In this document: positions 43,043 to 64,000 of the stretch, piece by piece | Layout: each line of letters starts with the position of its first letter | Numbering within the stretch: the stretch's first letter is position 1 | DNA from: an uncultured Methanosarcinaceae archaeon | GTDB taxonomy: Archaea; Halobacteriota; Methanosarcinia; Methanosarcinales; Methanosarcinaceae | Direction of reading: 5' to 3' | DNA length: 64,000 bases | Assembly: GCA_963833425.1 (NCBI GenBank) | Contig: CAWHXP010000005.1 | Span: 1 to 64,000 of the forward strand | The notes under the pieces: model-generated | What the model was told of the DNA's origin: nothing | The model's input: only the letters and a program-made list of their open reading frames with translations | Databases searched by the model: none | Position numbers and translations under genes: made by a program

Positions 43043-43508
43043 TAGAGATTTTCGATAACCTCCATGCTCTTGAGCATGGTTTGCTTTAAATTTGTCAATA
43101 TTTATGTATATTCATGAAAACTCTTACTGATTTTGCTCTTAAATAAGAGTATAAACGTCTTGAATCTGTTGGAGATAAGCTTGCTGAAATTGCTTCCTTA
43201 ATTGATTGGAAAGCGTTTCGTATTATTCTTGAGTCTATGTATATCAACAAAACCGTTTCAAGAGGGAGACCTGAAACTGGTGTCATTGTGATGTTCAAAA
43301 TGCTTGTTTTACAACAATGGCATGGGCTCTCTGATTTTGAACTTGAGAAACATTGTATAGATCGAATTTCTTTTAGGAAATTCCTTGGATTTCCTGAATA
43401 CATATCTGGCAGTACTATTGTATGGCTATTTAGGGAGAGAATTATCGAGCATTTCAAAGAAAATATAGGGAAAGTTGCAAAGCCAACTTGGTGCTCTGGG
43501 TTTACAGA
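43043..43508 (+). mobile_element. IS5-family 5' fragment
   Basis: Near-perfect inverted copy of 38866-39331, beginning TAGAGATTTTCGATAACC. Confidence 0.92.
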
Positions 43509-43860
43509 TTTTCGATCATAATCTTTACTGGGTCAAGTGATGAAAAAGTTGGGAGTGATGCTGTAAAGAAAGGTGCTCAGGACTATTTAGTCAAAGGACA
43601 AATAGATAGTAGATTATTGAAACGTTCTATCCAATATTCTATTGAGACAAAAAAAAGTAAGAAGTACTAGCAAAATCAGATCGCTCTTAAAACGGAAATT
43701 CATTACAGGATTAAGAACAATTTACAAGTAATATTTCCACTTATCGACTTTCAAGCTGATAAATTCAAAGGCCGAAAGGGTATAACGGATTCAGAAGTCA
43801 TTGATGCTTTCAAGGAAAGTCAGCATAGAGTAATATCTATGCCCTTATCCATGAAGAATG
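43509..43860 (+). pseudogene. Receiver domain / HisKA_2 histidine kinase fragment
   Basis: [25 protein letters not shown] then EIHYRIKNNLQVI and ESQHRVISM.LIHEE. Confidence 0.75.
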
Positions 43861-47061: not shown

Positions 47062-48198
47062 TTGAAAATGGATGTTTCAGAGAAAAAAAATCTTCAAGGA
47101 GCTAATCTTCAGGGAGCTGATCTTATAGAGGCTAACCTTCAAGAGGCTAACCTTGAAGGAGCTAACCTTGAAGAAGCTAACCTTCGAGGAGCTAACCTTG
47201 AAGAGGCTAACCTTCGAGGAGCTAATCTTTTTTATGCTGATCTCACAGAGGCTAACCTTCAAGGGGCTAACCTTATAGAAGCCAACATTGAAATGGCTAC
47301 ACTACAATTGGCTAAACTTCATTTAGCTAACTTTAAAGGAGCTGATCTTCAAGGAGCTAACCTTCAAGGGGCTGATCTTTATGGAGCTGATCTTCAAGGA
47401 GCTAACCTTCAGGGAGCTAACCTTTATGGAGCTGACCTTCAAGAAGCTAACCTTGGAGGAGCTAAACTTGAAGGAGCCAAACTTGGAGGTGTTAAACTTG
47501 AACGGGCTTACCTTATAGAAGCTAACCTTGAAGGAGCTAACCTTGAAGGGGCTAAACTTGGTGGAGCTAAACTTGAAAGGGCTAAACTTGAAAGAGCTTA
47601 CCTTATAGAAGCTAACCTTCAAGGAGCTGATCTTCAAGGAGCTAGCCTTCAGGAAGCTATCCTTTATGGAGCTGACCTTCAAGAAGCTAACCTTCGAGGA
47701 GCTAACCTTGAAGGAGCCAAACTTAGAGGAGTTAAACTTGAACGGGCTTACCTTATAGAGGCTAACCTTGAAGGAGCTAACCTTGAAGGAGCTAACCTTG
47801 AAGGAGCTAAACTTGGTGGAGCTAAACTTGGTAGAGCTAAACTTGAAAGGGCTAAACTTGAAAGGGCTTATCTTATAGAAGCTAACCTTGAAGGAGCTTA
47901 CCTTATAGAGGCTAACTTTCAATGGGCTAATCTTCAAGGGGCTAACCTTAAAGGGACTTACCTTTTAGGAGCTAACTTTAAAGAAGCTAATCTTGAAGGA
48001 GCTAACCTTGAAGGAGCTAATCTTGAAGGGGCTCATCTTGTAGGAACCAACCTTGAAGGAGCTGACCTTGAAGGAGCTAAGAATTTATCGCTTTTCCAAC
48101 TTTCTAAAGTGAAAACACTTTATAATACAAAACTAGATGAAGATCTTCTCATGCTATTAAAAGAAGAATATCCTGCACTTTTTGAAGAACCTGAATGA
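47062..48198 (+). CDS. Pentapeptide repeat protein
   Basis: More than 60 A(N/D/K/Y)Lxx units encoded by a 15-bp tandem repeat, with a C-terminal cap QLSKVKTLYNTKLD. Confidence 0.95.
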   Translation: MKMDVSEKKNLQGANLQGADLIEANLQEANLEGANLEEANLRGANLEEANLRGANLFYADLTEANLQGANLIEANIEMATLQLAKLHLANFKGADLQGANLQGADLYGADLQGANLQGANLYGADLQEANLGGAKLEGAKLGGVKLERAYLIEANLEGANLEGAKLGGAKLERAKLERAYLIEANLQGADLQGASLQEAILYGADLQEANLRGANLEGAKLRGVKLERAYLIEANLEGANLEGANLEGAKLGGAKLGRAKLERAKLERAYLIEANLEGAYLIEANFQWANLQGANLKGTYLLGANFKEANLEGANLEGANLEGAHLVGTNLEGADLEGAKNLSLFQLSKVKTLYNTKLDEDLLMLLKEEYPALFEEPE

Positions 48199-49395
48199 AT
48201 TCTTATTATAACCATACAATTATTGATAGATCCAGCTCTCATAAATACAGAGATATTATAGCAAAATCTATGCATTAACGAAAAACAAGATGTTTCTATT
48301 GGGTTGAATTCCTACTCCTAAGTAACTGGAAGGAAGAAGGAAAATGGCACATCTAATAGGGCAACTGTTTAAAAAAATTGGAGTTTTTTGCTTGACTTTT
48401 ACAATATAACTATAACCAAAGTCCTAAATAGTAAAGGATCTATAGAGCGTAATAGTTTAATTAGTCCCTATAGTGGAAGTCTACTGACATTCTAATTTAT
48501 TCTATACTTCTCAAGTTTGTATTTTGGTTCGGTTGCACTCCGTAATGACATTTTTGCAAAAAATATCATAACTCTCTTTAAAAATAGAATTTGCGTTCTC
48601 ATTATTCATTTCTTAATGATTAAGACTAAATTGAGAAGCAGGCAAGGATCAAATATCTTTACTGTAACAGAAATTATAGATAATATATTTTTATCAACCC
48701 ATATATAGCAAATTACAAGGTAAATCGGAATTCTCTTTAATTATTAGTAAGTTTGAAAATTGTTTTCATGATCCGGAATTTGATCAATTATTCATAAATT
48801 CTCCCCGACTGCCAATAGAAAACCCAACAATCAAGCAGAAGCCCATCAGAGTATAGCGAAGGAAGTCAAAATAAGAATACTCAAACTCAGACTACTATCA
48901 CCACCAAAAACCTATAACAACTGGTGGCATCATCATCAACACCATGAAGCCAAGCAGATACCATCGCCAACAACACTGCTTAAAAAGATTAATCAAAAAT
49001 CTCTATAATATTTTTGGGGATATTCATTGGTACTTAAATATATCTGAATAGGTATTAAATTTTAGAACGTAAATCCTTCTTATCTAATTTAAAATATATC
49101 TATACTGGACTATCGGATCGCCTTCTTTGCAAACTTTAGAGCAACTTATCCAAAAATATTTTTGATAGTCCTAAGCAAATACTGAGTTCAAACTAATGTT
49201 AATATCGCTTCACAAATTGTTAGTTGAAGCAAAAAGATGGGTTTTGTACAAAAATGATTTAATTTAATACAAATAATGCTTAAAAATGCTTAAACAATGA
49301 TCAAAACTTTTTATAGTTACTACATGGTGCAGATATATCAGAAAATAAAAAATCAAGCTCCAAAATATGTACACTATCATACACAACATTAATTT

Positions 49396-49885
49396 TTATG
49401 CTCCATTAACGGTGAAAGCTGCCCAATAGTAAGGATGCTCAAAAGGCTTATCTTCTGGAGATTCTTTGGCCATTTCAACGTAGTGTTTTCTGTACTGTTC
49501 TATTTTCTTCTTGCTTTCGTCTTCCCATTCTCTCGAGCAGTGACATTTTTCTACATGATCAGCTACTTGATTAACAGTAAGGTCTTTAATATAGAGTTGG
49601 GTTTTCTACAAAGCCGTTGGAATATCCGTTTCCTTAGCAATATGATTAGAGTAGAACCGTTCCATTAGTATAGCTGTCGAAATATCTGGGACAGACCATA
49701 GACTGCTTACCACGCATGGAATACCCGCAAGCATAAAACCTGCAGGTAATCCAACGAACTCATCGGCACTACCTTTAACAATATCGGTGATACCTGTCTC
49801 ACAGGCAGAAAGTGTTACCAATCTTGCTGAAGAAATGTCCACAACGTCATTTTGGAGATCTGCCAAACTCAGTGTTCTTCTCCCA
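49396..49885 (-). pseudogene. CHAT (caspase-like) protease C-terminal fragment
   Basis: LVTLSACETG, GLPAGFMLAG, VVSSLWSVPD, LMERFY, then an in-frame TAG (49606-49608), then PFEHPYYWAAFTVNGA*. Confidence 0.9.
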
Positions 49886-50070
49886 AACAAGTACAATCAA
49901 AAGTATGTGGATTGTCCTAGTTATGTCTGCAATGGCGGGAGAAATGGAGATATTAGTGTAAGCCAGATAAGGGAACTAATCAGCTCATAAACCTCCTAAC
50001 TTAGTTATATCAGAAGAAAGTGATTTATATCGTTGGATTAAGAAATATAAGGCTCTTTGGTGAGCTCATT

Positions 50071-53000
50071 TTAGTCTGATTTCTCAAATGAAAAAAAATG
50101 CATTTTACCAAGAGAATCACCTGCAACAATAGACTCACCATTCGGTGAAATGCAGCAGGCTAGAAACGGACTATCCCCTGTAAAATTAGAGATGATTATC
50201 CCTTGTTCCAGATCCCATACCTTGAGTGTTTTATCGCTGGAAGCTGAAATTGCATACCTTCCATCACGTGTGATTGCAACCGCATTCACCCAATTATCAT
50301 GTCCCTTTAGTGTTGTTTTTTCTTCTCCCCTTTCCAAATTCCATATCTTGAGTGTTTTATCATCGGAAGCTGAAACTGCATACCTTCCATCACACGTGAT
50401 TGCAACTGCATTCACCCGATAATCGTGTCCCTTTAGTGTTGTTTTTTTCTCTTCTCTGTTCCGATCCCATATCTTGAGTGTTTTATCGTCGGAAGCTAAA
50501 ACTGCATATCTTCCATCATGCGTGATTGCAACTGCATTCATCTTAGAAGAATATCCCTTTAGTGTTGCTTTTTCTTCTCCCCTTTCCAGATTCCATACCT
50601 TGAGTGTTCTATCGTAGGAAACTGAAACTGCATACTTTCCATCAGGTGTGATTGCAACTCCACGCACCCGACCATCATGTCCCCTTAGCGTTGTTTTTTC
50701 CTCTCCCTTTTCCAGATCCCATACCTTGAGTGTTTTATCTCCGGAAGCTGAAATCGCATACTTTCCATCACGTGTGATTGCAACTGCATTCACCCAATCA
50801 TCATGTCCCTTTAGTGTTGTTTTTTCCTCTCCCCTTTCCAGATTCCATACCTTGAGTGTTTTATCGCTGGAAGCTGAAACTGCATACTTTCCGTCAGGTG
50901 TGATTGCAACTGCATTCACCCGATAATCATGTCCCTTTAGTGTTATTTTTTCCTCTTCCTTTTCCAGATCCCATACCTTGAGTGTTTTATCGCCGGAAGC
51001 TGAAACTGCACACCTTCCATCACGTGTGATTGCAACTGCATTCACCCGATAATCATGTCCCTTTAGTGTTGTTTTTTCCTTTCCCCTTTCCAAATTCCAT
51101 ACCTTGAGTGTTTTATCTCCGGAAGCTGAAATCGCATACTTTCCATCACGTGTGATTGCAACTGCATTCACCCAATCATCATGTCCCTTTAGTGTTGTTT
51201 TTTCCTCTCCCTTTTCCAGATCCCATACCTTGAGTGTTTTATCTCCGGAAGCTGAAATCGCATACTTTCCATCACGTGTGATTGCAACTGCATTCACCCA
51301 ATCATCATGTCCCTTTAGTGTTGTTTTTTCCTCTCCCTTTTCCAGATCCCATACCTTGAGTGTTTTATCTCCGGAAGCTGAAATCGCATACTTTCCATCA
51401 CGTGTGATTGCAACTGCATTCACCCAATCATCATGTCCCTTTAGTGTTGTTTTTTCCTCTCCCCTTTCCAGATTCCATACCTTGAGTGTTTTATCGCTGG
51501 AAGCTGAAATCGCATACTTTCCATCACGTGTGATTGCAACTGCATTCACCCAATCATCATGTCCCTTTAGTGTTGTTTTTTCCTCTCCCTTTTCCAGATC
51601 CCATACCTTGAGTGTTTTATCATCGGAAGCTGAAATCGCATACTTTCCATCACGTGTGATTGCAACTGCATTCACCCAATCATCATGTCCCTTTAGTGTT
51701 GTTTTTTCCTCTCCCATTTGCAAATTCCATATCTTGAGTGTTTTATCGCTGGAAGCTGAAATCGCATACTTTCCATCACGTGTGATTGCAACTGCATTCA
51801 CCCAATCATCATGTCCGTCAAGAGTTCTAATCAACGATCCTCCTGGTGATTTCAAGGAACAAGTTCTTGGAAGTAATCTGATACCATCTTGACATTCACA
51901 TGCTTGACCTAGTAATGTTTGTATCCCCTCTTCGTGAAAACTAAGGAGACGTCCTAGAAGTTGTCCTGCAAGCTGAGTTTCATTTTTTATTAAAGCATTA
52001 TATGAAAGTTTAATTGCACTTTGTACAAGCCTTATTTCAGTATCATCGAGTAGGTAATCGTAATCATGGATAAGAGAATTTATGTTAGGTATTTTGATAC
52101 CCGTTTTGTCATTTCTAACGGTCACATGCTCCAATTTGGTGTGCATCCATTCAAAGTTTAAAAGAAGCATATGAAGTTCTTCTTTTCTTCCAGCTTCTTT
52201 CATGTGGTATGCAAGATGCTCGAAGAAGTACCCATCATTAGGGCCCGTACTCCACTTATTTTTACAATCTTTAGGATATGCTTCTAGCAACTGATTGTGA
52301 AGGCTTGTTAAATCACGTGTTGTAGCTCTCAGGTAATCAAGTTGCAGGTCATGAAGAGATATAAAGCGATGAGGTGCTTCACCATCTAGTCGCAGAAGAG
52401 ACATCTCTTTCAATTTAGATATCAATTTCCCAGAATTGCGCTTTTTTAAATTTCCAGTATGTGCCCAAAAAATCGCAATTGTAGCTTCAGGTACAGGTTC
52501 ATCTGTAGGAAAAATCGCCAGTTCCTGATAACGCTTTACTGCATCTGAATCTTCACTTGAAAGAAAGTCGAGACTGACTTTAAATGCTTTCATCACATTG
52601 GAATTTGGATAGTTTGGCAATTGAGCTTCAATAAATTCAAGATCAGCTTCTTGTAAAGCCTCCAAAATATCTAACCATGATATTCCACTTTTAGCCATCG
52701 CTCCACACATGGATAGAGCGAGTGGCAGGTATCCACATTCCCTTGCCACTCCTTTTGCTTCCGATGGCAATAAGTTTACATCCTTATCATACCAATTTGC
52801 TAGAAGCTTCAAAGCTTCAAGTTCGCTGAATGTTTTAATCTTGTGTTCCTGAGCTCCAAGTGAGGTAACAACATTATTGTTTCTTGTGGTAATAAGCAGT
52901 TTACACATTTTACCTAAAGCATTAACAAAAGGCACTGCATCTTGAACTTTCCAAACGTCGTCAAGTATAATGAGGCATGTTTTATTAGAAAGTACCTTTG

Positions 53001-53973
53001 AAAGACTCGCTTCAGCTTCCTTTTGGCTGCTGTAATTTGCAGGATCATCGCCAAATTCTCTACCGACTAACTTCAAGCCCCCTATAAGATCAGGATTCTC
53101 TAAACCTACAGTAACCCAGAATATCCCATCATGAAAAGCGTCGCGAGCTTCTCTACTTTGGGCAAGGGCTGTGGATAATACGGATTTTCCCATTCCTCCC
53201 ATACCTTGAAGTGAGTTTATCTGCTTTGCAGATGTGATTGCTGCAGATTTTGTGAAATCAGCCAGCATCAACTCTTTTATTTTCTTAAGATCTTCTGTTC
53301 GAGATAAATAATGAGGAGGTAGTGTAGGTACTCCAACAATTGGAGCAAGATGCTCAGATAGAAACTCAAAAATACTGAGGTCAAATGAATGCTCTTTGCA
53401 AACATTTAATATCGAATCAATAGGACTAAAGCCACCTGACAATATGCCTGTAGCTGTCTCCTTATAAACAACTATTCCTACGATATCGTTTAGTTTAGCG
53501 TCGAAAACCGGAGTACCGCTAAATCCTCCTTCAATATTATACCCGATAAACTTAGAAACGTCAATCTGAACGAAGTCAGGATAAGCCCTCCCTCTCCCTA
53601 ATACTGAGACCCACTCTGCTTTATCTCCATATGGAAAACCGCATACTTTGAGTTCTCGATCCCAGAAATCATCTGTGAGCATAAGCTTTCCTATACTGGC
53701 ACATGAAGGAGCTTCATCTTCAAGCTTAAGAATAGCAAAGCCATATTCTGTGTTTTGCGACCAAAAGAAAATGTGAGATTTTAGAACTTTATTTGGCTCA
53801 TCAAGATAAAAAGTCAGATATATCTCATCGCCTATTTTAGCATTTGGCGAAACATCATTGACTACGTGCCTGCAAGTAAGTATCCACCTTTTCCCAATTA
53901 GAAATCCAGCACCTTGTGCGTCCCTGTTCTTATCTAGAACTTTGACTATTGAGGACTCTGGTAAATGATTCAT
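50071..53973 (-). CDS. Apaf-1-like NLR: trypsin-like protease, NB-ARC, helical domain, 14 WD40 repeats
   Basis: GAGFLIG..WILTCRHVV and GGFSGTPV (trypsin). GMGGMGKS, LIILDDVW, LLITTRN, CGYLPLAL and LHDLQLDYL (NB-ARC with MHD-like motif). Thirteen near-identical WD repeats plus one divergent. Confidence 0.95.
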   Translation of the reverse strand: MNHLPESSIVKVLDKNRDAQGAGFLIGKRWILTCRHVVNDVSPNAKIGDEIYLTFYLDEPNKVLKSHIFFWSQNTEYGFAILKLEDEAPSCASIGKLMLTDDFWDRELKVCGFPYGDKAEWVSVLGRGRAYPDFVQIDVSKFIGYNIEGGFSGTPVFDAKLNDIVGIVVYKETATGILSGGFSPIDSILNVCKEHSFDLSIFEFLSEHLAPIVGVPTLPPHYLSRTEDLKKIKELMLADFTKSAAITSAKQINSLQGMGGMGKSVLSTALAQSREARDAFHDGIFWVTVGLENPDLIGGLKLVGREFGDDPANYSSQKEAEASLSKVLSNKTCLIILDDVWKVQDAVPFVNALGKMCKLLITTRNNNVVTSLGAQEHKIKTFSELEALKLLANWYDKDVNLLPSEAKGVARECGYLPLALSMCGAMAKSGISWLDILEALQEADLEFIEAQLPNYPNSNVMKAFKVSLDFLSSEDSDAVKRYQELAIFPTDEPVPEATIAIFWAHTGNLKKRNSGKLISKLKEMSLLRLDGEAPHRFISLHDLQLDYLRATTRDLTSLHNQLLEAYPKDCKNKWSTGPNDGYFFEHLAYHMKEAGRKEELHMLLLNFEWMHTKLEHVTVRNDKTGIKIPNINSLIHDYDYLLDDTEIRLVQSAIKLSYNALIKNETQLAGQLLGRLLSFHEEGIQTLLGQACECQDGIRLLPRTCSLKSPGGSLIRTLDGHDDWVNAVAITRDGKYAISASSDKTLKIWNLQMGEEKTTLKGHDDWVNAVAITRDGKYAISASDDKTLKVWDLEKGEEKTTLKGHDDWVNAVAITRDGKYAISASSDKTLKVWNLERGEEKTTLKGHDDWVNAVAITRDGKYAISASGDKTLKVWDLEKGEEKTTLKGHDDWVNAVAITRDGKYAISASGDKTLKVWDLEKGEEKTTLKGHDDWVNAVAITRDGKYAISASGDKTLKVWNLERGKEKTTLKGHDYRVNAVAITRDGRCAVSASGDKTLKVWDLEKEEEKITLKGHDYRVNAVAITPDGKYAVSASSDKTLKVWNLERGEEKTTLKGHDDWVNAVAITRDGKYAISASGDKTLKVWDLEKGEEKTTLRGHDGRVRGVAITPDGKYAVSVSYDRTLKVWNLERGEEKATLKGYSSKMNAVAITHDGRYAVLASDDKTLKIWDRNREEKKTTLKGHDYRVNAVAITCDGRYAVSASDDKTLKIWNLERGEEKTTLKGHDNWVNAVAITRDGRYAISASSDKTLKVWDLEQGIIISNFTGDSPFLACCISPNGESIVAGDSLGKMHFFSFEKSD
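50205..51835 (-). repeat. 126-bp highly conserved tandem repeats encoding WD40 blades
   Basis: Thirteen units, several identical at nucleotide level (e.g. 51104-51480). Confidence 0.95.
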
Positions 53974-53982
53974 TCAAAAGCC

Positions 53983-54309
53983 TCATGCCGTTTTCCAAGA
54001 AAGAGTGACCTTAAAATTTGCCTCAACGCTTGTAGTTGCAATAAAGGCTCCAGCTTGCGCATTCATTATGATCCCAAACTCAACCCCTATACAATCAGGC
54101 TTACTGCTTAGACTCTTTAGTCTCTGTACAATAACGTCTGCAGCAGGCCTGATGACATCCAGAGCTTTTTCAAATTCTTTTGTTGCTTCTTCAGGCACTC
54201 CTGACGGTCTAGAAACAGGAGTCCGACCTCTTTCGGATTCTGTTTCCTCTACTTCAATTAAAACAGCTCCACCCTCTTCAAGGTTATATTTCACAAGTTT
54301 CTTAGTCAC
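53983..54309 (-). CDS. Trypsin-co-occurring domain protein Trypco1 (CU044_2847-like)
   Basis: GGAVLIEV...FEKALDVIRPAA...PD.I.VEFGI...A.AGAFIA....EANFKVTLSW. Lies 9 bp upstream of the trypsin-NLR gene. Confidence 0.88.
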   Translation of the reverse strand: MTKKLVKYNLEEGGAVLIEVEETESERGRTPVSRPSGVPEEATKEFEKALDVIRPAADVIVQRLKSLSSKPDCIGVEFGIIMNAQAGAFIATTSVEANFKVTLSWKTA

Positions 54310-55773
54310 TATGCTTTCCTCCTACAAAAAATTAGTAATGAAGATTCGATTCATATCGTCCACAATGTAAGTAATTTGCATATTGTTACTTTTAAATAAG
54401 TCACTTATTTTTGTTTTTTAGCCTATTTATAATAATTTCTTGAAATAAACTATTTTTTAAGAGTTAGGGTCTCTAAACATTTAAATTGCAGAAAATTTCA
54501 GATGAAGATTTGTGATAAAAAGGGCCTGTTAAAGATTTGGAGGACAAAGATTGGAAGAGGGGTAAAAACTGGAATTTAGAGTAAAAGACTTAAAAGCTCA
54601 GCATTCGGCGGCTCAGGTGACTCTAGCTCCTAACTGATATTATATCAGTTGGAACAGGCATAACTAAGAAACTTCAAACGGGGGAGGTAGAAAAATGAAT
54701 TGACATCTCGCCCATAACTTTAGTTTAGGAATTATGTGCTTGAAGTTTAAAATTAAAATTATTATATGGTGCAATTGACAAATTTTATTCAGACCGTTCA
54801 AGTTTTAATTCTATTGATTTCAGTTCAACCATTTAAGTCATAATTAAAAAATAGCAGGGAAAGATAAAATATATTGGCACCCCGCGCAATGAGAACTTGA
54901 AAATATAACAAACATGCATAGTAATTGATGATACAAATGCGGAATCTTATCAATCAAAAAGCTATAGAATCACCAGGAGCAAAGGAGCCTGGTTAATGTT
55001 TTGAACTTTTTCTATGCGTGCATCACCAAGATTTCATTAAGTTATTTATTAATCATGCGTACACAATCTCCTTTTTAGCTCAAATTTAATTGAATGGATC
55101 ACTATTTAATAGGTAATTATGTTCATTTAAGTTTGATATAACAAACAGTAACTAACGGAGTTATTGGGTATTTATTTGAAGCTTTTTCGCTAATTACAGT
55201 CTTTTTATGCGAATTAATCAATTTAATTCGACATTATTCAGCATTTTAATGAATAAATTGAATTAATTTTTGGGATTTATTTCCACTTTAATCTAAAATT
55301 GTTATTTATTTGATCATTATTTATGCCGAAATTATAGAGTTACAAGAGACTATTTAAGCTTCAAATCCTAAAAAAAACAAGTTTAATAGTAAGAATTATA
55401 GCTTAATTGTAGTAAGGAAAGGTAAATATTTATTGCGTAAGTTATTTACACCCAGTTTACCCATCACTAATTATCCACAGAGTAAAATTCTTTTGTGAGT
55501 TCGCCGTTTGATGTCCTATAATCATAGAGATATGGTCCGTAAGTTCTAATTGATTTTGTATTTCAAGATCATAATCAAGAGCACACTGCTTTAGGTATAG
55601 TTGCTCTAAAGTGTAATAATGATGCACAATATAGCCAATCTTCCCATATCAATTTTATGAAATTTTCAAACTTTAATATTTGTATCGGACATAGGGTTAT
55701 TTATCAATTTACAGAAAATGACACAAAAAGATTAAACACCTACTCATTAACTAAACTATAAAGAATCTTTTAA

Positions 55774-56142
55774 TTAAATAAATGATTCAGTGTGGCTATC
55801 TCTAATTCTAATCTTTTCTAAAATTTTCATTCTAATCTTTTCTGCTTCATTTTCAGTTATACATGGGATATTCTGCTCCACTACTCGAGATTGCCCTTCT
55901 GCAGATAAATACAGGAACTCTCGAGCATGTGAGCTTAAACTTCTCTGATCTTCAATAACAAGCCTATAAACTGGCCGACTGGTATATTGCACCTTAGGAT
56001 TAAAAAAATATTCAAAATGTGCGTGTAGATCCCCTTCCCGGTAAAGAGAGAACAGATTTTTGCAATCCCAAGGTAACTCCTTGCCTATTTTTTGCCTTGC
56101 TTCAAGAGCTTGTAATCTTTTTTTCATTGATACTGTTACCAT
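55774..56142 (-). CDS. Hypothetical protein (mobile-element-like)
   Basis: 122-aa ORF starting MKKRLQALEARQ, GTGAAG ribosome-binding site, co-oriented with neighbours. Confidence 0.55.
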   Translation of the reverse strand: MVTVSMKKRLQALEARQKIGKELPWDCKNLFSLYREGDLHAHFEYFFNPKVQYTSRPVYRLVIEDQRSLSSHAREFLYLSAEGQSRVVEQNIPCITENEAEKIRMKILEKIRIRDSHTESFI

Positions 56143-56299
56143 ATCTTCACTTCACATTTTCAATATTGTATTTTTCCCTAATCTGGCTATAATTCCATTA
56201 TACTTACCAGAATATTAATGGAATCTTGGCATAAATGGTAATTAAACTTCCATATTATACAGCATACGACTCTCCGATCGAGCTTCCAGAATAATAATT

Positions 56300-56611
56300 T
56301 CATTCTACTCTTGTAAATAACGGAGTGTCCGAAAGAGCATAACCATTCTGTGCCTGATAATTTTCCAGAGCTTCAAGTCTCTTCTGAAAATCACCAATAT
56401 CCAAATCTTTCATTATCGCATTTTGGACCTGTAAAGCCTGAATGAAAACTCTGATATAGGCCAGCTTTAAGCTATCTCCTTCCTGAACTCTGAAACGTTT
56501 TGCCTTCAATCTCTTTTGAAGCTGTTCAATTAATTCTGAATTTGCACTTAACAGTGACTCTCGTGTTAGTAATTTAAGAGTAGCTATTGGGGTACTAACA
56601 GTGTTCTTCAT
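56300..56611 (-). CDS. Hypothetical helical protein (mobile-element-like)
   Basis: 103-aa ORF ending in coiled-coil DFQKRLEALE. Confidence 0.6.
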   Translation of the reverse strand: MKNTVSTPIATLKLLTRESLLSANSELIEQLQKRLKAKRFRVQEGDSLKLAYIRVFIQALQVQNAIMKDLDIGDFQKRLEALENYQAQNGYALSDTPLFTRVE

Positions 56612-57354
56612 TAAATCCCTTTATAACGTTTTGTCGGTTAATTGTCAAGAATTTATAGTAATATATTGTATTTATAAATATATACATTTTAGTGCATGTA
56701 TCGTAAATAAATGTTATACTACTGTTTCATCTTCTAATCACATCTTTGATCTTCTGAATATACATTAATATGTAGACCTAAATTATAAAAACAAATTCTT
56801 ATAATTAGTCTAAAGTATAATTTTTAATGAGTTAATGATAAACTATTACTTATGCGATTTAAACTTCACCACTGGCTTCTAATGCATTCTTATGACACTT
56901 AATCATTTACAATCCCCCTTAGACACAAATTATGAAGTTTTGTAAAATTTCCCCAAAAATTATTATAGAAAATCCACTTATCATGCAATTTACCGGTTAG
57001 CTTACTATTTACGAAAATTATAAACTGAAACAGATAAGTAAGCTCTTGAATCTAAAAAGATCACTACTAAACTATTTATTAGTCCAAATTTTAATAATCC
57101 TAATGAAATCGCTTATACTTGAGTTTGTACTCTAAGTGAGTAAGTCATATTAAAGAAAAGTCAGTCTACACTTGCTGATATAGAAGATTGGGACTTGATA
57201 AGAGATTCGATCGGGCTAAAAGGAGTTACTTATAAAAATTGGTTTAAATATCTAATTACAGTTTCACACATTCTTCCGGTCAAATAGCAATAAATGCAAC
57301 CTAACACTTCGTCCCCCTGCAACAGTAATAGTATTATTTGGGGAACTCTCTTGC

Positions 57355-57696
57355 TTAGGAGTGCATTTTTAAGGTGGGGTATCCTTCATAACAGTTATTG
57401 CATAACACAGTCACAGTAGGACTTTTACCCTTTTGTCGGATCGTTTTTATCATTCCACATTTTTCTAACTCGTTCAATGCTGTCGGAAAAGCCCAATCAG
57501 GGATAGGTAAAAGGGAATTTATACCTTTCAAGGTGACTACTAAATTTGTAGATTTTTTAATACCTTTTAAGTGCCAAATGTACATAGCCACCCTATAAGT
57601 ATGCCCAACTGAATTTGAAGGTAGCTTCACAATCCATTCTAAAGGCAATTGGGGTATGAAGTATCCTTTTATTTTATCTCTAGAATTTACTAACAT
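57355..57696 (-). CDS. Small winged-helix DNA-binding protein, putative replication or regulatory protein
   Basis: LPLEWI...VAMYIWHL.GIKKS...ALNELEKCGMIKTIRQKGKSPTVTV, a wHTH recognition helix plus wing. Confidence 0.6.
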   Translation of the reverse strand: MLVNSRDKIKGYFIPQLPLEWIVKLPSNSVGHTYRVAMYIWHLKGIKKSTNLVVTLKGINSLLPIPDWAFPTALNELEKCGMIKTIRQKGKSPTVTVLCNNCYEGYPTLKMHS

Positions 57697-57795
57697 GATT
57701 TTACCCCATCTAATATTATTTCTAAATGATAAGAGTAAATAAATAAGAAATATAAAGAAATATAAGTAGTAAAAACATTATCCGAAGGCTTTAGA

Positions 57796-57881
57796 ATTTA
57801 GCTGTGTAGCTAATTAATTTTAGCTGTAGAGCGAAATATATTTTGCTGTGCAGCTAATTAATATTGCTCTGTAGCTAAATT
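57796..57881. repeat. Four phased palindromic repeats (iteron/operator-like)
   Basis: GCT-N4-AGC cores at 57801, 57823, 57845 and 57866 (spacing 22, 22, 21 bp), consensus TT(A/T)GCT-N4-AGCTAA. Confidence 0.8.
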
Positions 57882-59542
57882 CAAAGTGTAGACAAAACAG
57901 ATTATTGGAACTATTCTGCTTTCAGCTTCCTTCTTCTTTAATTTCTCCTAAAATCTCCATAATCAAATGCCACTTTTCTGCACCCTTCTCATCTATATAC
58001 CTATCAGGATAAAGATCGTATTAAAAATACCTTTGATAATTACATGAACAAGTTCAAACCTTATTTATCAAAAACCATTTGAAGCATCTAGAGCAAAAAA
58101 GCCCTGGTGGGGATTTTGGTGATGATAGCTACCTTAAGACGCTGAATATATCAATAGTGGATTTTTATTCTATTAAAATTTGATTGAGTTTAGAAAGTCA
58201 AGATTAACGAATTAATGACTCATTAGATTCTCGATTCACAGCAAACTTCGTTAGAATTTGTTGTCTTATTTCATTTATTTCTGCCATAAAGTCTTACAGA
58301 CTGAAGCCAGATATACTCAGGACTGTCTAATACCTTCAGGCAAAATATATTGCAAATCCAGGTTTATGAAACCGATCTCTGAACTCACAAATGAAATGTA
58401 CCTGGATTATGTAGGCTCATGATAATTAATAAAATGACATTTTTCCGCTTCAGGAAAGCTCTGGCTCAAATATGAACGAGTATAGGGCGATTCGAGGCAT
58501 TTTCTTGAGAAGTTAATTAAAACTATTAACTAGATGGAAAAAAACCCCATGATAGGGCTTAAAATAAGCCAGTTTTTGTCAATCCGTTAGCAAAACATGG
58601 GACAAAGTCAGCAATTTAGTCCAAACTAATCAAAAAGTAAATGAAATCTCATGTTGATTTAGAGAATCTGGAGAAGCCTGTTAGTCAACCATCACCTATT
58701 TGCTCTCGTAAACCCTAAGTAAGTCCAAGATATAGCTAATAATAATTTTTATTACTTTATTAATATAATAGGATATTGAACGCATTTAGTTTAAATTGTA
58801 TTAGATATACTTCTTTATCTGAAATAAAGATGATCCATTTATATAAAAACTAAACTATAACTCCAGATTAAAAAGTGGTTATTACAGATTTTTCATCCCT
58901 GTGACTACTAATCAGGTCCAAAATTAACATTTTATGCAACTATATTTCAAAAATTAAGATCAAACATAATCAAGGACCGTTATTTTCGGTTCGGTCAATG
59001 GGATGCGGTGACAAAAAACAAATTAGTTCATTACTTCCAGTTTTGGATAATAAGCCTAATAACAAAAATAAGTGGAGCGGAAGGATCAAAAACTTTATTT
59101 GCTCAATGTTGTGACAATACTTCTCATTGAATTTAGCTATTATCATAGACATCCCAATACCTTGCAGTAGACTTCGTACCTTTAAATCATAAATTTTAAT
59201 AAATGGTAGTAAAGTCTTCCTTATAAAAAATAAATATAATTTATAAAAATCAGATAAAATAAATATTGAATTTGTTCTATTGCCTGAAAATAAGGCAATC
59301 ACATAGTCAATAAAATATATTTTAAAGTTGTAAAATAAATTTTTGACTTTCTAAAATTTAGTATCTATTCAGATAAATTTATGTATTTACTTGATTATGT
59401 ACTCAAAATTCCAAAATGGAAATCTTTATTTTATTAGCTAGGGATATCTCATTTATCTTTTATCTCAAAATTTTGATCTTAGAGCTAAAATGGTGAACTG
59501 TTGTGATAAAACCCAACTTTTGTACCAGAAAGCCGGAGAAGT

Positions 59543-59900
59543 TTATTTATTCGAATTTTTTAATTCTTCAAGATTTCTCTCACAAAAATCAATTCGTCTA
59601 AGATCTTCAATTTTTCTATCCATTTTTATTGCCTGTTCATAATACTCAATTGCTTTTATTGTCTCTCCCAAATCTCTATACGCGTTTCCCAGATTACCAA
59701 GGTGAATTCCTTCTGCGTCCCTATTTCCAATTTCTTTAGCAATTTTGAGTGCTTGTTCATAATACCCAATTTCTTTTTTCGTCTCTCTCAGAGCACTGTA
59801 TGCATTCCCTAGATTTCAAAGTTGATTTCCTTCATTAAGTCTATCACCTATTTATCTTGCAATTTTTAGTGACTGTTCAAGATAATTTATTGCTTTCCTC
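59543..59900 (-). pseudogene. C-terminal TPR fragment of an NLR-type gene
   Basis: YYEQALKIAKEIGNRDAEGIHLGNLGNAYRDLGETIKAIEYYEQA...IDFCERNLEELKNSNK*. Confidence 0.8.
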
Positions 59901-60678
59901 CCTACTTATGCTGCTCGGAGTGTTTCTCATCTTTATGTTCTTCACCGGATTTTTTGCTGTCGTTTTGTTGCTCATCTGAGTGTTTCTTCTTAGGAGCCGT
60001 GTAAATACATCCAATTCCCAGAACAACGCGTCCAATCGCCAGTAATATTAAGATTATATAGTTTGGAAACTTTGTCTTCATATTATGCACCTATTTTTAT
60101 ATTTTATAATGCATTATTAATTTATAGATAATTGACTTATTGACTTATTATCTATAATGATTATAGCAAAATGCAAATATTATATAAATACTGCCTATAT
60201 ATACTATATATATTTATATATGAATAAAGTGTTTAGCAAAGGAAAAAATATAAATCCAATAACTCCAAAGATAATTTTACGCATGTAAATAATAAAATAA
60301 GATCTTTTTAATATAAGACTTATGAAGGCTCAACTGCAAAATCTCCTTTAAGTATTTATCGCGTAAATAATGAATAAAAAAGTTGGGAATGATTTTTTTC
60401 TTATTTGTAAGTGGAAAAAATCTGTCTCAGGATGAACTTTAAGAAAAAAATGTGCCAACCTATAGCTAAAAGCAGAATACAAGTTGATTGTCTCTTGATG
60501 ACGTCTGATGTCCTCACGGTTCTAATTTTGTCTTTTGATGCAATTGTAACCAGTGGTGAACAAAAACCCATTAATAATCAAAGTTTAGCTTCGGTAGTAA
60601 AAAGATGGGGGATGGAAGTAATGATCTTACTTAAGACTAACCTTTTCCTTTTTGTTCAGTCTAAGTTGTAATATGATC

Positions 60679-60826
60679 GGTTTTGTTGCAAAAATAATAT
60701 CTCTGCAGTTTACTCATTAATTTTTACCTTTATGTACTATTTTTCTCGGTTATGAGACTAATTAATTTTCAAATTGTGATAAACATATTGATTTTGTAAC
60801 AAAGCCAAATTTTTTGCACCAAAAAT
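60679..60826. mobile_element. Degenerate copy of the 149-bp MITE
   Basis: GGTTTTGTTGCAAAAATAAT start and AAAGCCAAATTTTTTGCACC end, similar length to 14141-14289. Confidence 0.6.
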
Positions 60827-60833
60827 CAGCAAG

Positions 60834-61070
60834 TTTATTTTTTCTAAATTTTTAATTTCTCAAGATTTCTCTCGCAAAAATCAATTAGTCGGGAATCTTC
60901 AATTTCTTTAGCAATTTTGAGTGCCAGTTTATAATATCCAATTGCTTTCTTTGTCCTTCCAAGATCATTGTATATTATTCCCAGATTTCCAAGGCATTTC
61001 CCTTCTCCTTTCTTACCCCCAATTTCTTTAGCAATTTTGAGTGACTGTTCATAATACTCAATTGCTTTTA
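60834..61070 (-). pseudogene. Second C-terminal TPR fragment, paralogous to 59543-59900
   Basis: KAIEYYEQSLKIAKEIGGKKGEGKCLGNLGIIYNDLGRTKKAIGYYKLALKIAKEIED...IDFCERNLEKLKNLEKNK. Confidence 0.8.
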
Positions 61071-61104
61071 TAAGATAGCATCATTATTTTGTAGGAGATA
61101 AACT

Positions 61105-61410
61105 ATGGAGAAAATTGGATTGGTAGAGACGATAGAAGCCTTGCGGTCAGAGTTATCTGCGGCGGTAAAGAAAGCCCAAGGACAAGAGATTCAGTTTCCG
61201 ATAGGTTCAGTACAACTGGAGTTCCAGGTAGGAGTGACATGGGACGCAGAGACTAAGGGTAAAGTCAAGTTCTGGGTATTGGAGTTAGGAGCGAGCGGCA
61301 AATATGCAAACGAATCGGTCCAGAAGGTCACTCTTAATCTTGAAGCCCCAGTGAACACTGAGGGAAATATAGTGAAAGTGACAGAACATTCGCGACAGAG
61401 ACCGAGTTAG
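61105..61410 (+). CDS. Trypsin-co-occurring domain protein Trypco2
   Basis: IGLVETIEALRSEL..A...IQF.IGSVQLEFQV...GKVKFWVLELGASG....VQKVTLNL. Directly upstream of a trypsin gene. Confidence 0.9.
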   Translation: MEKIGLVETIEALRSELSAAVKKAQGQEIQFPIGSVQLEFQVGVTWDAETKGKVKFWVLELGASGKYANESVQKVTLNLEAPVNTEGNIVKVTEHSRQRPS

Positions 61411-61422
61411 GGAGGGTAGATA

Positions 61423-62823
61423 GTGTTAGCAGGGCTGAACAGTCGAGCCGTTGAAGTTATCTATGAAGGGTGTGACGAAAACGGACATTTCTGGGAGGTA
61501 GGTTCTGGGTCCTTCGTTCGCCCTAATCTGGTGCTTACTGCCTCGCACTGTATTCCCGGCCCGGGCAAATTAAGAGTGCGTCTTCTCTACGACGGAAAAA
61601 AGTACCCTGCGACAGTGCGCCTGCAAGCTGACAAAGACAACGCAGATTTAGCAGTACTCGAAGTTTCTAATGTACCAGTGGAAGTCCCTGTTCTACGATT
61701 TGGAGAGGTAAATCGGAATATATCAGGGAAAGTGAAGGAATGTATAGCAATTGGCTTCCCCAGGTTCAAAGATATCGAAGATAAATCTAAGGTACTGCGT
61801 TGCAGTGCCCAAGTCGAGGGGGAGATCCCAACCGGAGAAAATTTTCGCCAGCCCATTCTTACGCTACAGATAACAAACAAGAATCCACGATCACTACCTG
61901 ATAACAAATCGGAATGGGCAGGGATATCTGGGGCAGTAGTATACTCGAGCAATGATACTATCATAGGTGTGATAACTGAGCATCATCTCCCGGAGGGTGA
62001 GAGTGCGTTAAACGTTGTGCCAATTACGGCCATCGATGGTCTAGATGAAGCGGGGAAATGGTGGCAGTTACTAGGTGTGAACCGTCAAGCACTCGTAAGT
62101 CTGCCGAAAATTATAGGCAATGTTACAGGCAAGCTAGCTACTGGGAAATATATCAATCAAATTGTGATAAAAGAGCCATCAGTAGAGGCATTAGTTAAAC
62201 AGATGGACTTTTTAGAACAAAAAGAAGAAAGTTTTGATTTATTTTTAAGCTATTTACACTTAGATGATGAGTTTGTTGACAAATTGTCCTGGTTGCTCGA
62301 AAATATTGCCTACTTAAGGGTATTGCATGACAGATGGATTATTTTGCCTGAAAAATGGCAGCAAGAAATACCTCGTGGATTCGAACTCACAAAATCTTGT
62401 GCAATATGTATCGGAGGGGAAACCCCCGAAGGTTGGTTTAGAGACGAGATTGAACTGGCTATCAGTCACCAAAGTGAAGATAAAGCATTCAGAGTTATTC
62501 CAGTGTTATTGCCCAATGCTCAAGAAATAAGTCTTGATGATTTCCCTGAGTTAAGAACTTTGGTGGACTTTAGGAATGGTTTGGAAGATACTAAAGAATT
62601 GCATCGTCTAGTTTCCGGGATACGCGGTGTGCCGCCAGGAAGAAAGCCTTCGGAAATTGTGATACAAGAACCTGATATTGAACCTGATATTAATAGAGCT
62701 CGTAAGCAATTAAGGATAATTGAACAACTGAGCTTTGAATTTAAGGCTATTTTCTCTCAAAAGCTAGTGGATGAGAGTGTTCGTAAGATAGTAAAAGTAA
62801 ATGTGTTAATGAAAAATAGGTGA
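61423..62823 (+). CDS. Trypsin-like serine protease fused to a TIR domain
   Basis: Intact triad: LVLTASHC, ADLAVL, WAGISGA. TIR motifs FDLFLSY, DRWIILP..W, WFRDEIE and VIPVLLP. Confidence 0.92.
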   Translation: MLAGLNSRAVEVIYEGCDENGHFWEVGSGSFVRPNLVLTASHCIPGPGKLRVRLLYDGKKYPATVRLQADKDNADLAVLEVSNVPVEVPVLRFGEVNRNISGKVKECIAIGFPRFKDIEDKSKVLRCSAQVEGEIPTGENFRQPILTLQITNKNPRSLPDNKSEWAGISGAVVYSSNDTIIGVITEHHLPEGESALNVVPITAIDGLDEAGKWWQLLGVNRQALVSLPKIIGNVTGKLATGKYINQIVIKEPSVEALVKQMDFLEQKEESFDLFLSYLHLDDEFVDKLSWLLENIAYLRVLHDRWIILPEKWQQEIPRGFELTKSCAICIGGETPEGWFRDEIELAISHQSEDKAFRVIPVLLPNAQEISLDDFPELRTLVDFRNGLEDTKELHRLVSGIRGVPPGRKPSEIVIQEPDIEPDINRARKQLRIIEQLSFEFKAIFSQKLVDESVRKIVKVNVLMKNR

Positions 62824-62827
62824 CTCA

Positions 62828-64000
62828 ATGGCAGACACCAAGTACAAGTATGATGTATTTCTGAGCTATTCAAGATCTGATGTGAATTCAGTTGAAAAAG
62901 TTGCGAGCTATCTCAGTGATGCAGGACTGAACGTCTGGTTTGATGAATGGTCACTGGTTCCAGGTCAGCAATGGGAGGCATCTTTAGAGGAAGCTTTTGA
63001 TAGTTCGCTTACAATCGCTGTTTTTGTAGGTCCTTCATCGTTAAGTAATCAGCAACAACTGGAGTTGAAAGAAGTCCTTAATAAGCAGATGAACGGTGCA
63101 GTTCATAGGGTCATACCTATCCTACTTCCTGGATCCAGTATAGATTTTATCCCTTTACCCCTTCGCAAAATATGCGCTTTAGACCTTCGTAAAGGTCTTG
63201 AGACAAAACGCGAGCTAAATGAACTTGTTAAAATGATTACCGAATATAAAACCGTAACCTATGGCACTGGACTAACAACAGGTCGCGATGTTTCCATAGG
63301 TGATGTTACCGGCCAGCTAGCTATTGGGAAATATATCAATCAAATTACTATAAAAGAGCCTTCTGGAAAGGCGTTAGTTGAATTAATAGCTTATCTGGAA
63401 CAAGAGAGAAATAAAGAAGAAAATCTTAAAATTTTAAACAGCTATAATCCTTCTGTCCTTCCTTATTTTGACCCTAGACTAAAAGAATTTGTTACCACAA
63501 ACAGAGTGGAAGAATTAAGCCAAGCTCTCGTATATCTTCAGGATCACAGGCTTTTACTTTTTACTGGATTAGGTGGAGTTGGAAAGACTACTCTTGCAAG
63601 AGCCATTATTGATATAAGACCAGCTAATGTACCTATTCCTTTCTGGTTTGATTTCAGTCAAAATCAGAGTGCCAAACTAGGGGATATTCTCGAAAAACTC
63701 GCAGCATATATGAATTCTCGAGATTTAGTAGGATTCAAAGAGGAAAAACGAGAGCCAGAAAAAAAGGATATTGATAAACTCATAGACAAATTAAATGTAG
63801 GAAACCCAGTATGGCTTATTTTCGACAACTTGGAAACTATAATGGATGACATTTATTTCCAAGATGAATATATAGATCTATTTTTTACTTGTTTGTTTAC
63901 CAACACTTACCAGATAAAGATCATTATAACGAGTAGAACTGTTCCAATGTTAAAAAATGAAGAATGCTTAATTAACGTAATAGAAGGAGATAAACAGAAT
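62828..64000 (+). CDS. TIR plus NB-ARC/STAND NTPase protein, partial (runs off the window; absent from the ORF track)
   Basis: Manual translation is open to the window end: MADTKYKYDVFLSYSRSD...VWFDEWSLVPGQQW...RVIPILLPG (TIR), GLGGVGKTTLA (Walker A), LIFDNLE (Walker B), IIITSR. Confidence 0.93.
   Translation, partial: MADTKYKYDVFLSYSRSDVNSVEKVASYLSDAGLNVWFDEWSLVPGQQWEASLEEAFDSSLTIAVFVGPSSLSNQQQLELKEVLNKQMNGAVHRVIPILLPGSSIDFIPLPLRKICALDLRKGLETKRELNELVKMITEYKTVTYGTGLTTGRDVSIGDVTGQLAIGKYINQITIKEPSGKALVELIAYLEQERNKEENLKILNSYNPSVLPYFDPRLKEFVTTNRVEELSQALVYLQDHRLLLFTGLGGVGKTTLARAIIDIRPANVPIPFWFDFSQNQSAKLGDILEKLAAYMNSRDLVGFKEEKREPEKKDIDKLIDKLNVGNPVWLIFDNLETIMDDIYFQDEYIDLFFTCLFTNTYQIKIIITSRTVPMLKNEECLINVIEGDKQN

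Follow-up and report, generated by a model that had tools for sequence, protein, structure and literature searches.

This study concerns a cluster of protease, sensor and small-protein genes in DNA from an uncultured Methanosarcinaceae archaeon. The window, that is, the whole stretch of DNA that was analysed, is the first 64 kb of a 251,901-bp contig (C5) from a 4.07-Mb, 21-contig draft genome with 36% G+C and a completeness score of 80%. From about 49.4 kb the window enters an island that runs past its end, to about 74.1 kb on the contig. Judged by analogy with bacterial systems, this is probably (at a chance of roughly 68%) a defence island that holds two cell-suicide systems of the Pepco type, NLR-like and gated by a protease, together with the debris of earlier ones, and that turns over by cassette and domain swapping. 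The two systems are encoded by tight, divergent operons: system A, on the minus strand, pairs Trypco1 with a protease-NB-ARC-WD40 protein, and system B, on the plus strand, comprises Trypco2, a trypsin-TIR protease and a TIR-NTPase-TPR sensor. Each operon has its small Trypco-family gene immediately 5' of the protease gene, and the intergenic gaps are 9 nucleotides (nt) between Trypco1 and the system A protease, 12 nt between Trypco2 and the system B protease, and 4 nt between that protease and its sensor. Domain content, operon spacing, most of the catalytic residues, a recurrent gene pair of two TIR types (TIR-A and TIR-B) and the signs of turnover were all observed here.

In the work of Kaur et al. 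(2020; PMC7159879), Trypco1 and Trypco2 were defined as alternatives that exclude each other next to the trypsin-like peptidases of conflict systems, and a link to multicellularity was argued in the same paper, citing Methanosarcina mazei. Evans et al. (bioRxiv 10.1101/2025.11.14.688446) equate Pepco with Trypco1 and Trypco2 and describe a Streptomyces example upstream of a trypsin-Avs4 gene. In their account the Streptomyces Pepco is a pore toxin that forms stable 9- to 10-mer beta-barrels; the protease cuts behind a conserved Ile and releases a charged, proline-rich C-terminal tail of 2 kDa, and the trimmed Pepco kills E. coli, which requires the protease serine and a phage portal trigger. 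This Pepco-protease-Avs4 module is the closest known system and, by analogy, the source of the mechanism adopted here; a Pepco-type pore is the most likely mode of action at this locus.

On this model the WD40 propellers of system A would bind a foreign protein, of viral or other origin, the NB-ARC NTPase would oligomerise in the manner of an apoptosome and bring the N-terminal trypsin-like domains together, and these would cut Trypco1, which in its cut form would permeabilise the membrane. System B would follow the same logic spread over three genes, with TIR-B borne by the TPR-NTPase sensor and TIR-A by the protease. On activation TIR-A and TIR-B would co-assemble, forming NAD-cleaving sites and clustering the protease, which would then trim the C-terminal tail of Trypco2 so that the pore opens. 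We infer every one of these steps in this archaeon, as well as the triggers, the TIR-TIR docking and the cleavage sites, from the analogy with the bacterial module.

A Pfam profile search bore out all eight domain assignments of an earlier sequence-only reading, each where that reading had placed it: a CHAT remnant, a trypsin-NB-ARC-WD40 protein, Trypco1, two orphan TPR C-termini, Trypco2, a trypsin-TIR protein and a TIR-NB-ARC protein. In the whole draft, TIR_2 matches occur at four places, two of them at the locus; NB-ARC matches likewise occur at four places, two at the locus and the other two weak. The single Trypco2 match of the draft is the one described here, and of the two Trypco1 matches the unbroken one lies here, the other, on contig C3, carrying a stop. 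The CHAT domain has ten matches in about seven places, among which only a gene on contig C6 is full-length and without a stop. The clustering of defence-type genes is not a matter of chance, because the locus holds such a share of the draft-wide TIR_2, NB-ARC, Trypco1 and Trypco2 matches. As defence islands do, the locus shows above-average clustering of such genes, adjoins mobile elements and varies between relatives.

System A and its WD40 sensor-protease

The Trypco1 gene of system A (53983-54309, minus strand) encodes a Pepco-type small protein that matches Pfam PF19493 with E = 1.1e-25. Directly downstream lies the gene for a sensor-protease of 1300 residues (50071-53973, minus strand), with Pfam matches to Trypsin_2 (E = 3.1e-8), NB-ARC (3.8e-25), APAF1_C (7.6e-13) and WD40. 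From its N-terminus the protein consists of a trypsin-like domain (residues 1-200), the NB-ARC domain, a weak Apaf-1-type winged helix, the helical APAF1_C region and 13 WD40 units. The NB-ARC domain, APAF1_C region and 13 WD40 repeats are those of a STAND/NLR protein, and the Walker A and Walker B motifs, read by eye, are intact in the translated NTPases. The protease domain retains His36 and Ser152 and has Gly78 (codon GGC) in the column of the catalytic Asp; Asp occupies this column in a 62%-identical relative (genome G134) and in the system B protease family.

Trypco1 has 48 relatives at E<=1e-8 and ends two residues past the conserved core. A structure model of low confidence (predicted local distance difference test scores of 57.7 and 62.3 for the two Trypco models) gives it an N-terminal hairpin, a loop, a long helix and a hairpin, a fold that differs from that of Trypco2. 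In this model residues 21-37 are predicted to form a disordered loop of acidic residues and Arg and, if Trypco1 is a protease-gated pore former, this loop would be the likeliest cut site.

The WD40 part is built of 13 tandem units of 126 nt (42 residues) at DNA positions 50080-51891, which are mutually 76-91% identical, the divergent first copy excepted. Amino-acid variation among the units is focused on eight positions (4, 5, 13, 16, 19, 23, 31 and 34), and pairwise codon differences amount to 702 non-synonymous versus 178 synonymous. Near-identical repeats with focused variation are known from fungal incompatibility NLRs and are typical of NLR repeats that diversify rapidly. The same pattern would also suit a different role for the locus, namely self/non-self recognition or developmental cell death within aggregates, in which the sensors would read kin or damage signals as fungal WD40 NLRs do in allorecognition. 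Within the family, moreover, Trypco1 was found only in the genus of the window (25 of 34 genomes) and in one sister genus (five of six), that is, in 30 of 40 genomes as against none of the 110 from 14 other genera, relatives being compared at one genome per species. In these related large-genome lineages the distribution is compatible with the multicellularity link that Kaur et al. (PMC7159879) argue. However, it amounts to two independent lineages at most, which are related and have large genomes, with genome size as a confounder. The only experiments so far done on modules of this type show activation by phage proteins; furthermore, the locus lies amid mobile-element debris, as defence islands do, and nothing in it bears on kin signals. 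A role of this kind in place of antiviral defence is considered quite unlikely. The sequence-only reading had proposed a link of the island to the aggregate lifestyle of Methanosarcina, which may hold.

System B and the TIR-A/TIR-B pair

The first gene of system B encodes Trypco2 (61105-61410, plus strand; Pfam PF19631, E = 1.5e-26), again a Pepco-type small protein, with 1141 relatives at E<=1e-3 (counted as 50%-identity clusters). Across 41 aligned sequences, an N-terminal helix and conserved strands precede a tail in which the conserved aliphatic stretch from Ile88 to Val91 is followed by about ten polar residues with a conserved terminal Pro. The structure model, again of low confidence, places a helix at residues 6-24 and strands at 36-47, 53-59 and 71-79, followed by the tail. 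By its sequence Trypco2 thus appears to fit the published Pepco layout, in which an N-terminal helix and beta strands lead to a polar tail with a proline at its end. At 90% identity, both Trypco2 and the 1300-residue protein of system A form singleton clusters among about 15 billion proteins.

The protease of system B (61423-62823, plus strand; 466 residues) consists of a trypsin domain (Trypsin_2, E = 8.7e-11), a 36-residue linker motif and TIR-A (TIR_2, E = 1.6e-13). Its triad of His42, Asp75 and Ser169 is invariant in the family alignment, and Glu342 of TIR-A is invariant in the TIR-A alignment. This protease is fused only to a TIR domain, the sensor being the next gene, whereas the system A protease is fused to the sensor itself. 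Relatives of its trypsin domain at 54-76% identity are fused to STAND, NACHT, FHA and FGE domains. The trypsin-plus-TIR layout is shared with two clusters only (P0005 and P0013), in which the trypsin domain is a different one and the TIR with its tail is about 60-66% identical. Third-codon-position G+C is 0.49 in Trypco2, 0.44 in the trypsin part and 0.25-0.34 in everything downstream; because of this sharp break inside system B, the Trypco2-trypsin portion looks imported and joined to more native-looking parts.

The sensor gene begins at 62828 on the plus strand, leaves the window and ends at contig base 66892. Its product of 1354 residues comprises TIR-B with Glu79 (TIR_2, E = 5e-22), a linker motif, an nSTAND6/NB-ARC NTPase and a long TPR array. 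The NB-ARC match (E values of 1.5e-6 and 2.8e-7) lies over the cut-off and that to nSTAND6 just below it; with NB-ARC, TPR and Walker motifs, this protein too has the make-up of a STAND/NLR sensor. With its NTPase-TPR core it is a member of the nSTAND6 family; relatives of this core share 52-72% identity with it, many come from Methanosarcina, and the nearest named homologues are from Methanosarcina species and Methanolobus. The N-termini of these relatives vary: a TIR domain is found in P0061, P0118, P0145 and P0169, a trypsin domain in P0014, and the 36-residue motif alone in most. A frameshifted, TIR-less paralogue of the sensor (59-75% amino-acid identity) was observed at C12:13113-14885; it is preceded by overlapping long open reading frames (ORFs) with peptidase S9, amidase and glycosyl hydrolase 3 fragments, a region of foreign-looking composition.

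Two copies of the linker motif, 79% identical at the nucleotide level, are present in system B on the plus strand, one between the trypsin domain and TIR-A (62113-62220) and the other between TIR-B and the NTPase (63296-63403). Among the 86 family members that bear the motif, 55 have it within the first 45 residues. P0014 is a single-gene trypsin-linker-NTPase-TPR protein, 48% identical to the protease half of system B and 68% to its NTPase half. It represents the unsplit form; in system B the two halves of a former single-chain protease-sensor would carry one TIR each. More generally, the range of N-termini suggests that such systems are rebuilt by swapping N-terminal effectors on a constant sensor chassis.

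Glu79 of TIR-B aligns with the Glu of the 'YEL' motif in AbTIR. This Glu, which corresponds to Glu342 in TIR-A, we take to be the catalytic residue. Both TIR domains thus carry the putative glutamate conserved in TIR NADases, and for this reason the proposal that they are mere adaptors without catalysis was rejected. The TIR-A alignment was used to scan a genome collection, in which it retrieved two loci from metagenome-assembled genomes (MAGs), one of the Acidobacteriota and one of the Oceanospirillaceae (L031:7980-9947 and L032:7998-10063). In both, a TIR-A relative of 195 residues (45% identity, measured for the Oceanospirillaceae protein) lies directly 5' of a TIR-TPR gene whose TIR is 35-44% identical to TIR-B. 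A scan of metagenomes added 79 loci (L042-L120). The 79 metagenome and two MAG loci, merged at 97% nucleotide identity, give 74 distinct instances, of which 65 are informative in having >=600 nt downstream. A TIR-B-type domain on the same strand within 350 nt downstream was found in 52 of these 65, and in 34 of the 52 a TPR match then follows; the loci were retrieved by TIR-A patterns, and each TIR was assigned to A or B by its relative score to the two TIRs of the window. The putative catalytic Glu is present in 44 of 60 distinct TIR-B segments and in all TIR-A segments, the search pattern for the latter itself containing the residue.

The nearest relative of the system B layout (L046:642-7085) has an effector-less nSTAND6-TPR gene, then a TIR-A gene of 200 residues and then a TIR-B-nSTAND6 gene, without protease and Trypco2; in another locus (L111) TIR-A is fused straight to the NTPase. 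A trypsin domain or Trypco2 was found in none of the TIR-A loci retrieved. Together these observations suggest that the TIR-A and TIR-B types form a conserved working pair, and the likeliest role of the pair in system B would be a co-assembly on activation that clusters the protease and may also cleave NAD.

A more specific proposal, which is put forward tentatively and considered possible but not probable, is that TIR-A and TIR-B form a dedicated heterotypic docking pair, by which the sensor would recruit and switch on the Pepco-opening protease in trans, with NAD cleavage as a possible second arm. If so, it would parallel, in a prokaryote, the recruitment of caspases by adaptors, and the two-gene module of a TIR-A of about 195 residues and a TIR-B-TPR protein, common in metagenomes, would be an undescribed defence system in itself. 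No description of the TIR-A/TIR-B pair or of such a Methanosarcina locus was found in the literature searched, the supplementary tables of Evans et al. and Kaur et al., which may list archaeal members, lying outside its scope.

Comparison with known systems

The layout agrees with the Pepco-protease-Avs4 module as Evans et al. present it in that a Trypco gene lies just upstream of a trypsin-like protease coupled to a STAND sensor with C-terminal repeats, and in that Trypco2 shares the arrangement of helix, strands and polar tail. It departs from that account in its archaeal host, in its sensors, which are NB-ARC-WD40 and nSTAND6-TPR proteins rather than Avs4, in that protease and sensor of system B are separate proteins with a TIR each, and in the missing C-terminal tail of Trypco1 and missing catalytic Asp of the system A protease. 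Among ternary systems with MoxR, vWA and VMAP, as described by Kaur et al. (2020; PMC7159879), Trypco1 or Trypco2 likewise occurs beside trypsin-like peptidases, with one Trypco type per system. Here, however, the NTPase is of the STAND class, and a scan of the ORFs between 47 kb and contig base 82 kb found no MoxR, vWA or VMAP.

System A further resembles Apaf-1 and the AP-ATPases, with its NB-ARC domain, winged helix, APAF1_C region and WD40 propellers in the same order and with an N-terminal death-execution module that depends on oligomerisation. Unlike in Apaf-1, the N-terminus is itself a protease and not a caspase-recruiting CARD, and the 13 WD40 units are near-identical tandem copies. 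System B shares features with TIR NADase defence proteins (AbTIR, Thoeris ThsB and TIR-STAND proteins), since both of its TIRs are of the TIR_2 type and TIR-B aligns over the AbTIR Glu motif. It differs from them in having two distinct TIR types in neighbouring genes, one of them fused to a protease, and no ThsA-like partner. The type of system is already known from bacteria; what is new is the three-gene split of system B with its TIR pair, and the Gly that replaces the catalytic Asp in the system A protease.

Several points weigh against reading the island as the seat of two working protease-gated systems. All demonstrations so far of working protease-gated pore toxins with NLR-like sensors come from bacteria. 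The system A protease may be weak or dead, given Gly78, and the published C-terminal-tail cleavage is inapplicable as such to Trypco1 because only two residues follow its core. Trypco1 and Trypco2 showed no detectable sequence relationship in an hhalign profile comparison (probability 1.1%), and the Trypco monomer models are of low confidence. The TIR domains, both of which retain the putative Glu, may simply be NADases rather than docking devices. Finally, both large proteins are singletons at 90% identity, and no PADLOC model, those for Avs1-4 included, names either NTPase region; the Avs matches were confined to the protease domains, which Avs1b matched weakly (14 and 24.5 bits).

Some of these points bear on a second explanation, according to which the operons are recently acquired passengers that are decaying and non-functional like their neighbours. 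It would account for Gly78 in the catalytic Asp column and for the singleton status of the large proteins, and it is consistent with the four gene stubs around the operons, a broken Trypco1/SIR2/nSTAND1 set on contig C3 and the stops in most CHAT copies. However, the three large reading frames (1300, 466 and 1354 codons) are uninterrupted despite the AT-rich genome, the triad of the system B protease is complete, both TIRs retain Glu, the Walker motifs are intact and the operons are tightly spaced. Decay is thus regarded as unlikely, and two full-length systems remain the preferred reading. They would then be two full-length archaeal versions of the system, in a genus for which genetic tools exist and viruses have been cultured. 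A wiring of sensor to effector without fusion is suggested by system B, through a cognate TIR pair; in addition, the locus points to a widespread TIR-A/TIR-B-TPR gene pair and may serve as a worked example of rebuilding by N-terminal effector swaps on a constant sensor chassis.

Turnover, gene debris and surroundings of the island

The sequence-only reading had described an immunity island in active turnover, with intact and dead modules side by side, and this picture holds: two full-length defence-type operons stand among four gene stubs and the remnant of a mobile element. Turnover is seen further in a paralogous block on contig C6, in the break in composition inside system B and in an intact copy of the element adjoining the island's operons. 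The first stub is a CHAT (caspase-like) remnant at 49399-49896 on the minus strand, which comprises the C-terminal 166 residues. The Pfam CHAT match (E = 1.1e-21, profile positions 175-252 of 289) falls in an ORF at 49606-49896; one in-frame TAG stands at 49606-49608 and, when it is read through, the remnant extends to 49399. It is 76.5% identical to residues 229-394 of an intact CHAT ORF of 394 residues at C6:27251-28435.

The two orphan TPR C-termini of that reading also proved to be real, each matching the 3' end of the 1354-residue sensor gene at the DNA level, at 79% and 82% identity. The first, at 59530-59899 on the minus strand (ORF 59570-59899), matches contig positions 66698-67061 at 79%, and its blastx matches reach 67% identity to the TPR repeats of the sensor. 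The second, at 60729-61074 on the minus strand (ORF 60856-61074), is 82% identical over 345 nt to contig 66818-67154 and 78% identical to the first. Both consist of the last TPR repeats and the 3' flank of that gene. A third TPR stub, of 114 residues, lies past the window end, and all three keep the 3' ends of lost sensor genes.

Likewise, what had been called a plasmid-like remnant between the two Trypco families is a genuine piece of an integrase/DNA polymerase A element (57355-58011, minus strand). It consists of an ORF of 113 residues (57355-57696), 93.6% identical in amino acids to the end gene of the element at contig 67770-68135, and of the last 27 polymerase codons (57931-58011), whose product is 74% identical to polymerase residues 563-589. 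The intact element of about 6.4 kb (C5:67770-74126) begins about 0.9 kb past the 3' end of the system B sensor gene and encodes a 122-residue ORF, a family A DNA polymerase of 589 residues, three ORFs of unknown function and a tyrosine integrase of 443 residues. Its polymerase is only 20-28% identical to catalogued plasmid and phage polymerases. A search with the polymerase gave eight matches in the same genome, and tblastn with the polymerase and the end gene found further places on contigs C1, C3, C7, C8, C13, C15, C18 and C21.

This proximity raises a third explanation, that the systems are cargo of this or another mobile element and serve rival exclusion or addiction on behalf of the element and not of the host. 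In its favour are the intact copy next to system B, the remnant between the operons and a third element remnant beside the broken Trypco1 locus on C3. On the other hand, the C18 copy, the only other one with annotated surroundings (those on C1 and C21 being unannotated), has no such genes beside it, and no attachment-site repeats were found around the downstream element or enclosing the operons. The core family of the system B sensor is common in Methanosarcina chromosomes, and the element turned up in just 4 of the family's 150 other genomes, against 30 of 150 for Trypco1. We therefore hold a cargo role to be very unlikely and retain host defence as the reading of the two systems.

The C6 block (C6:27251-31618) carries homologues of two small ORFs of the window, followed by split TPR ORFs and the intact CHAT gene. 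The two small ORFs (122 and 103 residues; 55774-56611, minus strand) lie in a stretch paralogous to C6:30274-31618 (86-87% nucleotide identity); they had no Pfam, PADLOC or PHROG match, and the Trypco proteins had no PHROG match. Relative to C6, 2.5 kb with the TPR part and the CHAT N-terminus is replaced in the window by 5.7 kb with Trypco1 and the 1300-residue gene, so that the C6 block appears to show the locus as it was before a cassette swap. On contig C8 a CHAT 3' remnant and a short dispersed repeat, a DNA-level repeat that occurs in the window at 55171-55412, are 175 bp apart, whereas in the window they are 5.3 kb apart with the Trypco1 operon in between.

Related genomes show other combinations of the same parts. 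In G006, a TIR-NB-ARC and WD40 set has 66-72% DNA identity to the system A sensor, and in G134 Trypco1 occurs with a trypsin-ARM protein. Among nine loci retrieved from relatives, four have Trypco1 immediately 5' of a gene for a SIR2_2 protein of about 510 residues, and in three of the four this protein was seen to have CHAT. An nSTAND1 protein is encoded nearby, with WD40 seen in two of the four. In the draft itself, C3:169601-173666 holds a Trypco1 gene broken by a TAA, a SIR2_2 fragment and an nSTAND1 fragment, adjoining a polymerase-element remnant; the set is the one usual in relatives, here in a broken state.

In 19 same-genus genomes, no DNA-level match to either whole operon was found. 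These comprised 18 species genomes and G169, whose element copies are the most similar among relatives, and they yielded no more than short NTPase stretches (68-71%) in five genomes and the relative in G006. Only 3 of the 34 same-genus genomes gave a Trypco2 match, scoring 39-40 bits as compared with 92.7 here. No empty site can be defined, because the flanking genes lie scattered, hundreds of kilobases apart, in five complete relatives. Nevertheless, turnover by cassette replacement and domain swapping beside a multi-copy integrative element is supported by the sequence comparisons, on account of the apparent cassette swap against the paralogous block, the mosaic base composition and the absence of the operons from the related genomes searched.

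Some further observations concern the surroundings. One flanking gene falls in a protein cluster named methanogen homocitrate synthase, which, together with the named homologues of the system B sensor core, makes Methanosarcina the likely genus; no tRNA gene was found in the region. Among the sequencing runs listed none was of RNA; four DNA runs of one study hold small shares (0.05-0.12), and short contigs that show no difference in two of the four probably derive from the same population. An inverted repeat at 49031-49147 and 59269-59385 (86% over 43 nt; about 76-78% over about 100-117 nt), found nowhere else in the genome, encloses system A together with the CHAT stub and the remnant of the element. 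A gene-poor stretch (34-47 kb) on the left side of the island holds two DUF772 transposase fragments (38712-39137 and 43237-43521), given which the variable region may start earlier than 49396. Between this stretch and the island, at 47062-48198, lies the gene for a pentapeptide-repeat protein of 378 residues, with several paralogues in the same genome, 67-83% DNA matches in most same-genus genomes and many internal repeat-length variants on metagenome contigs.

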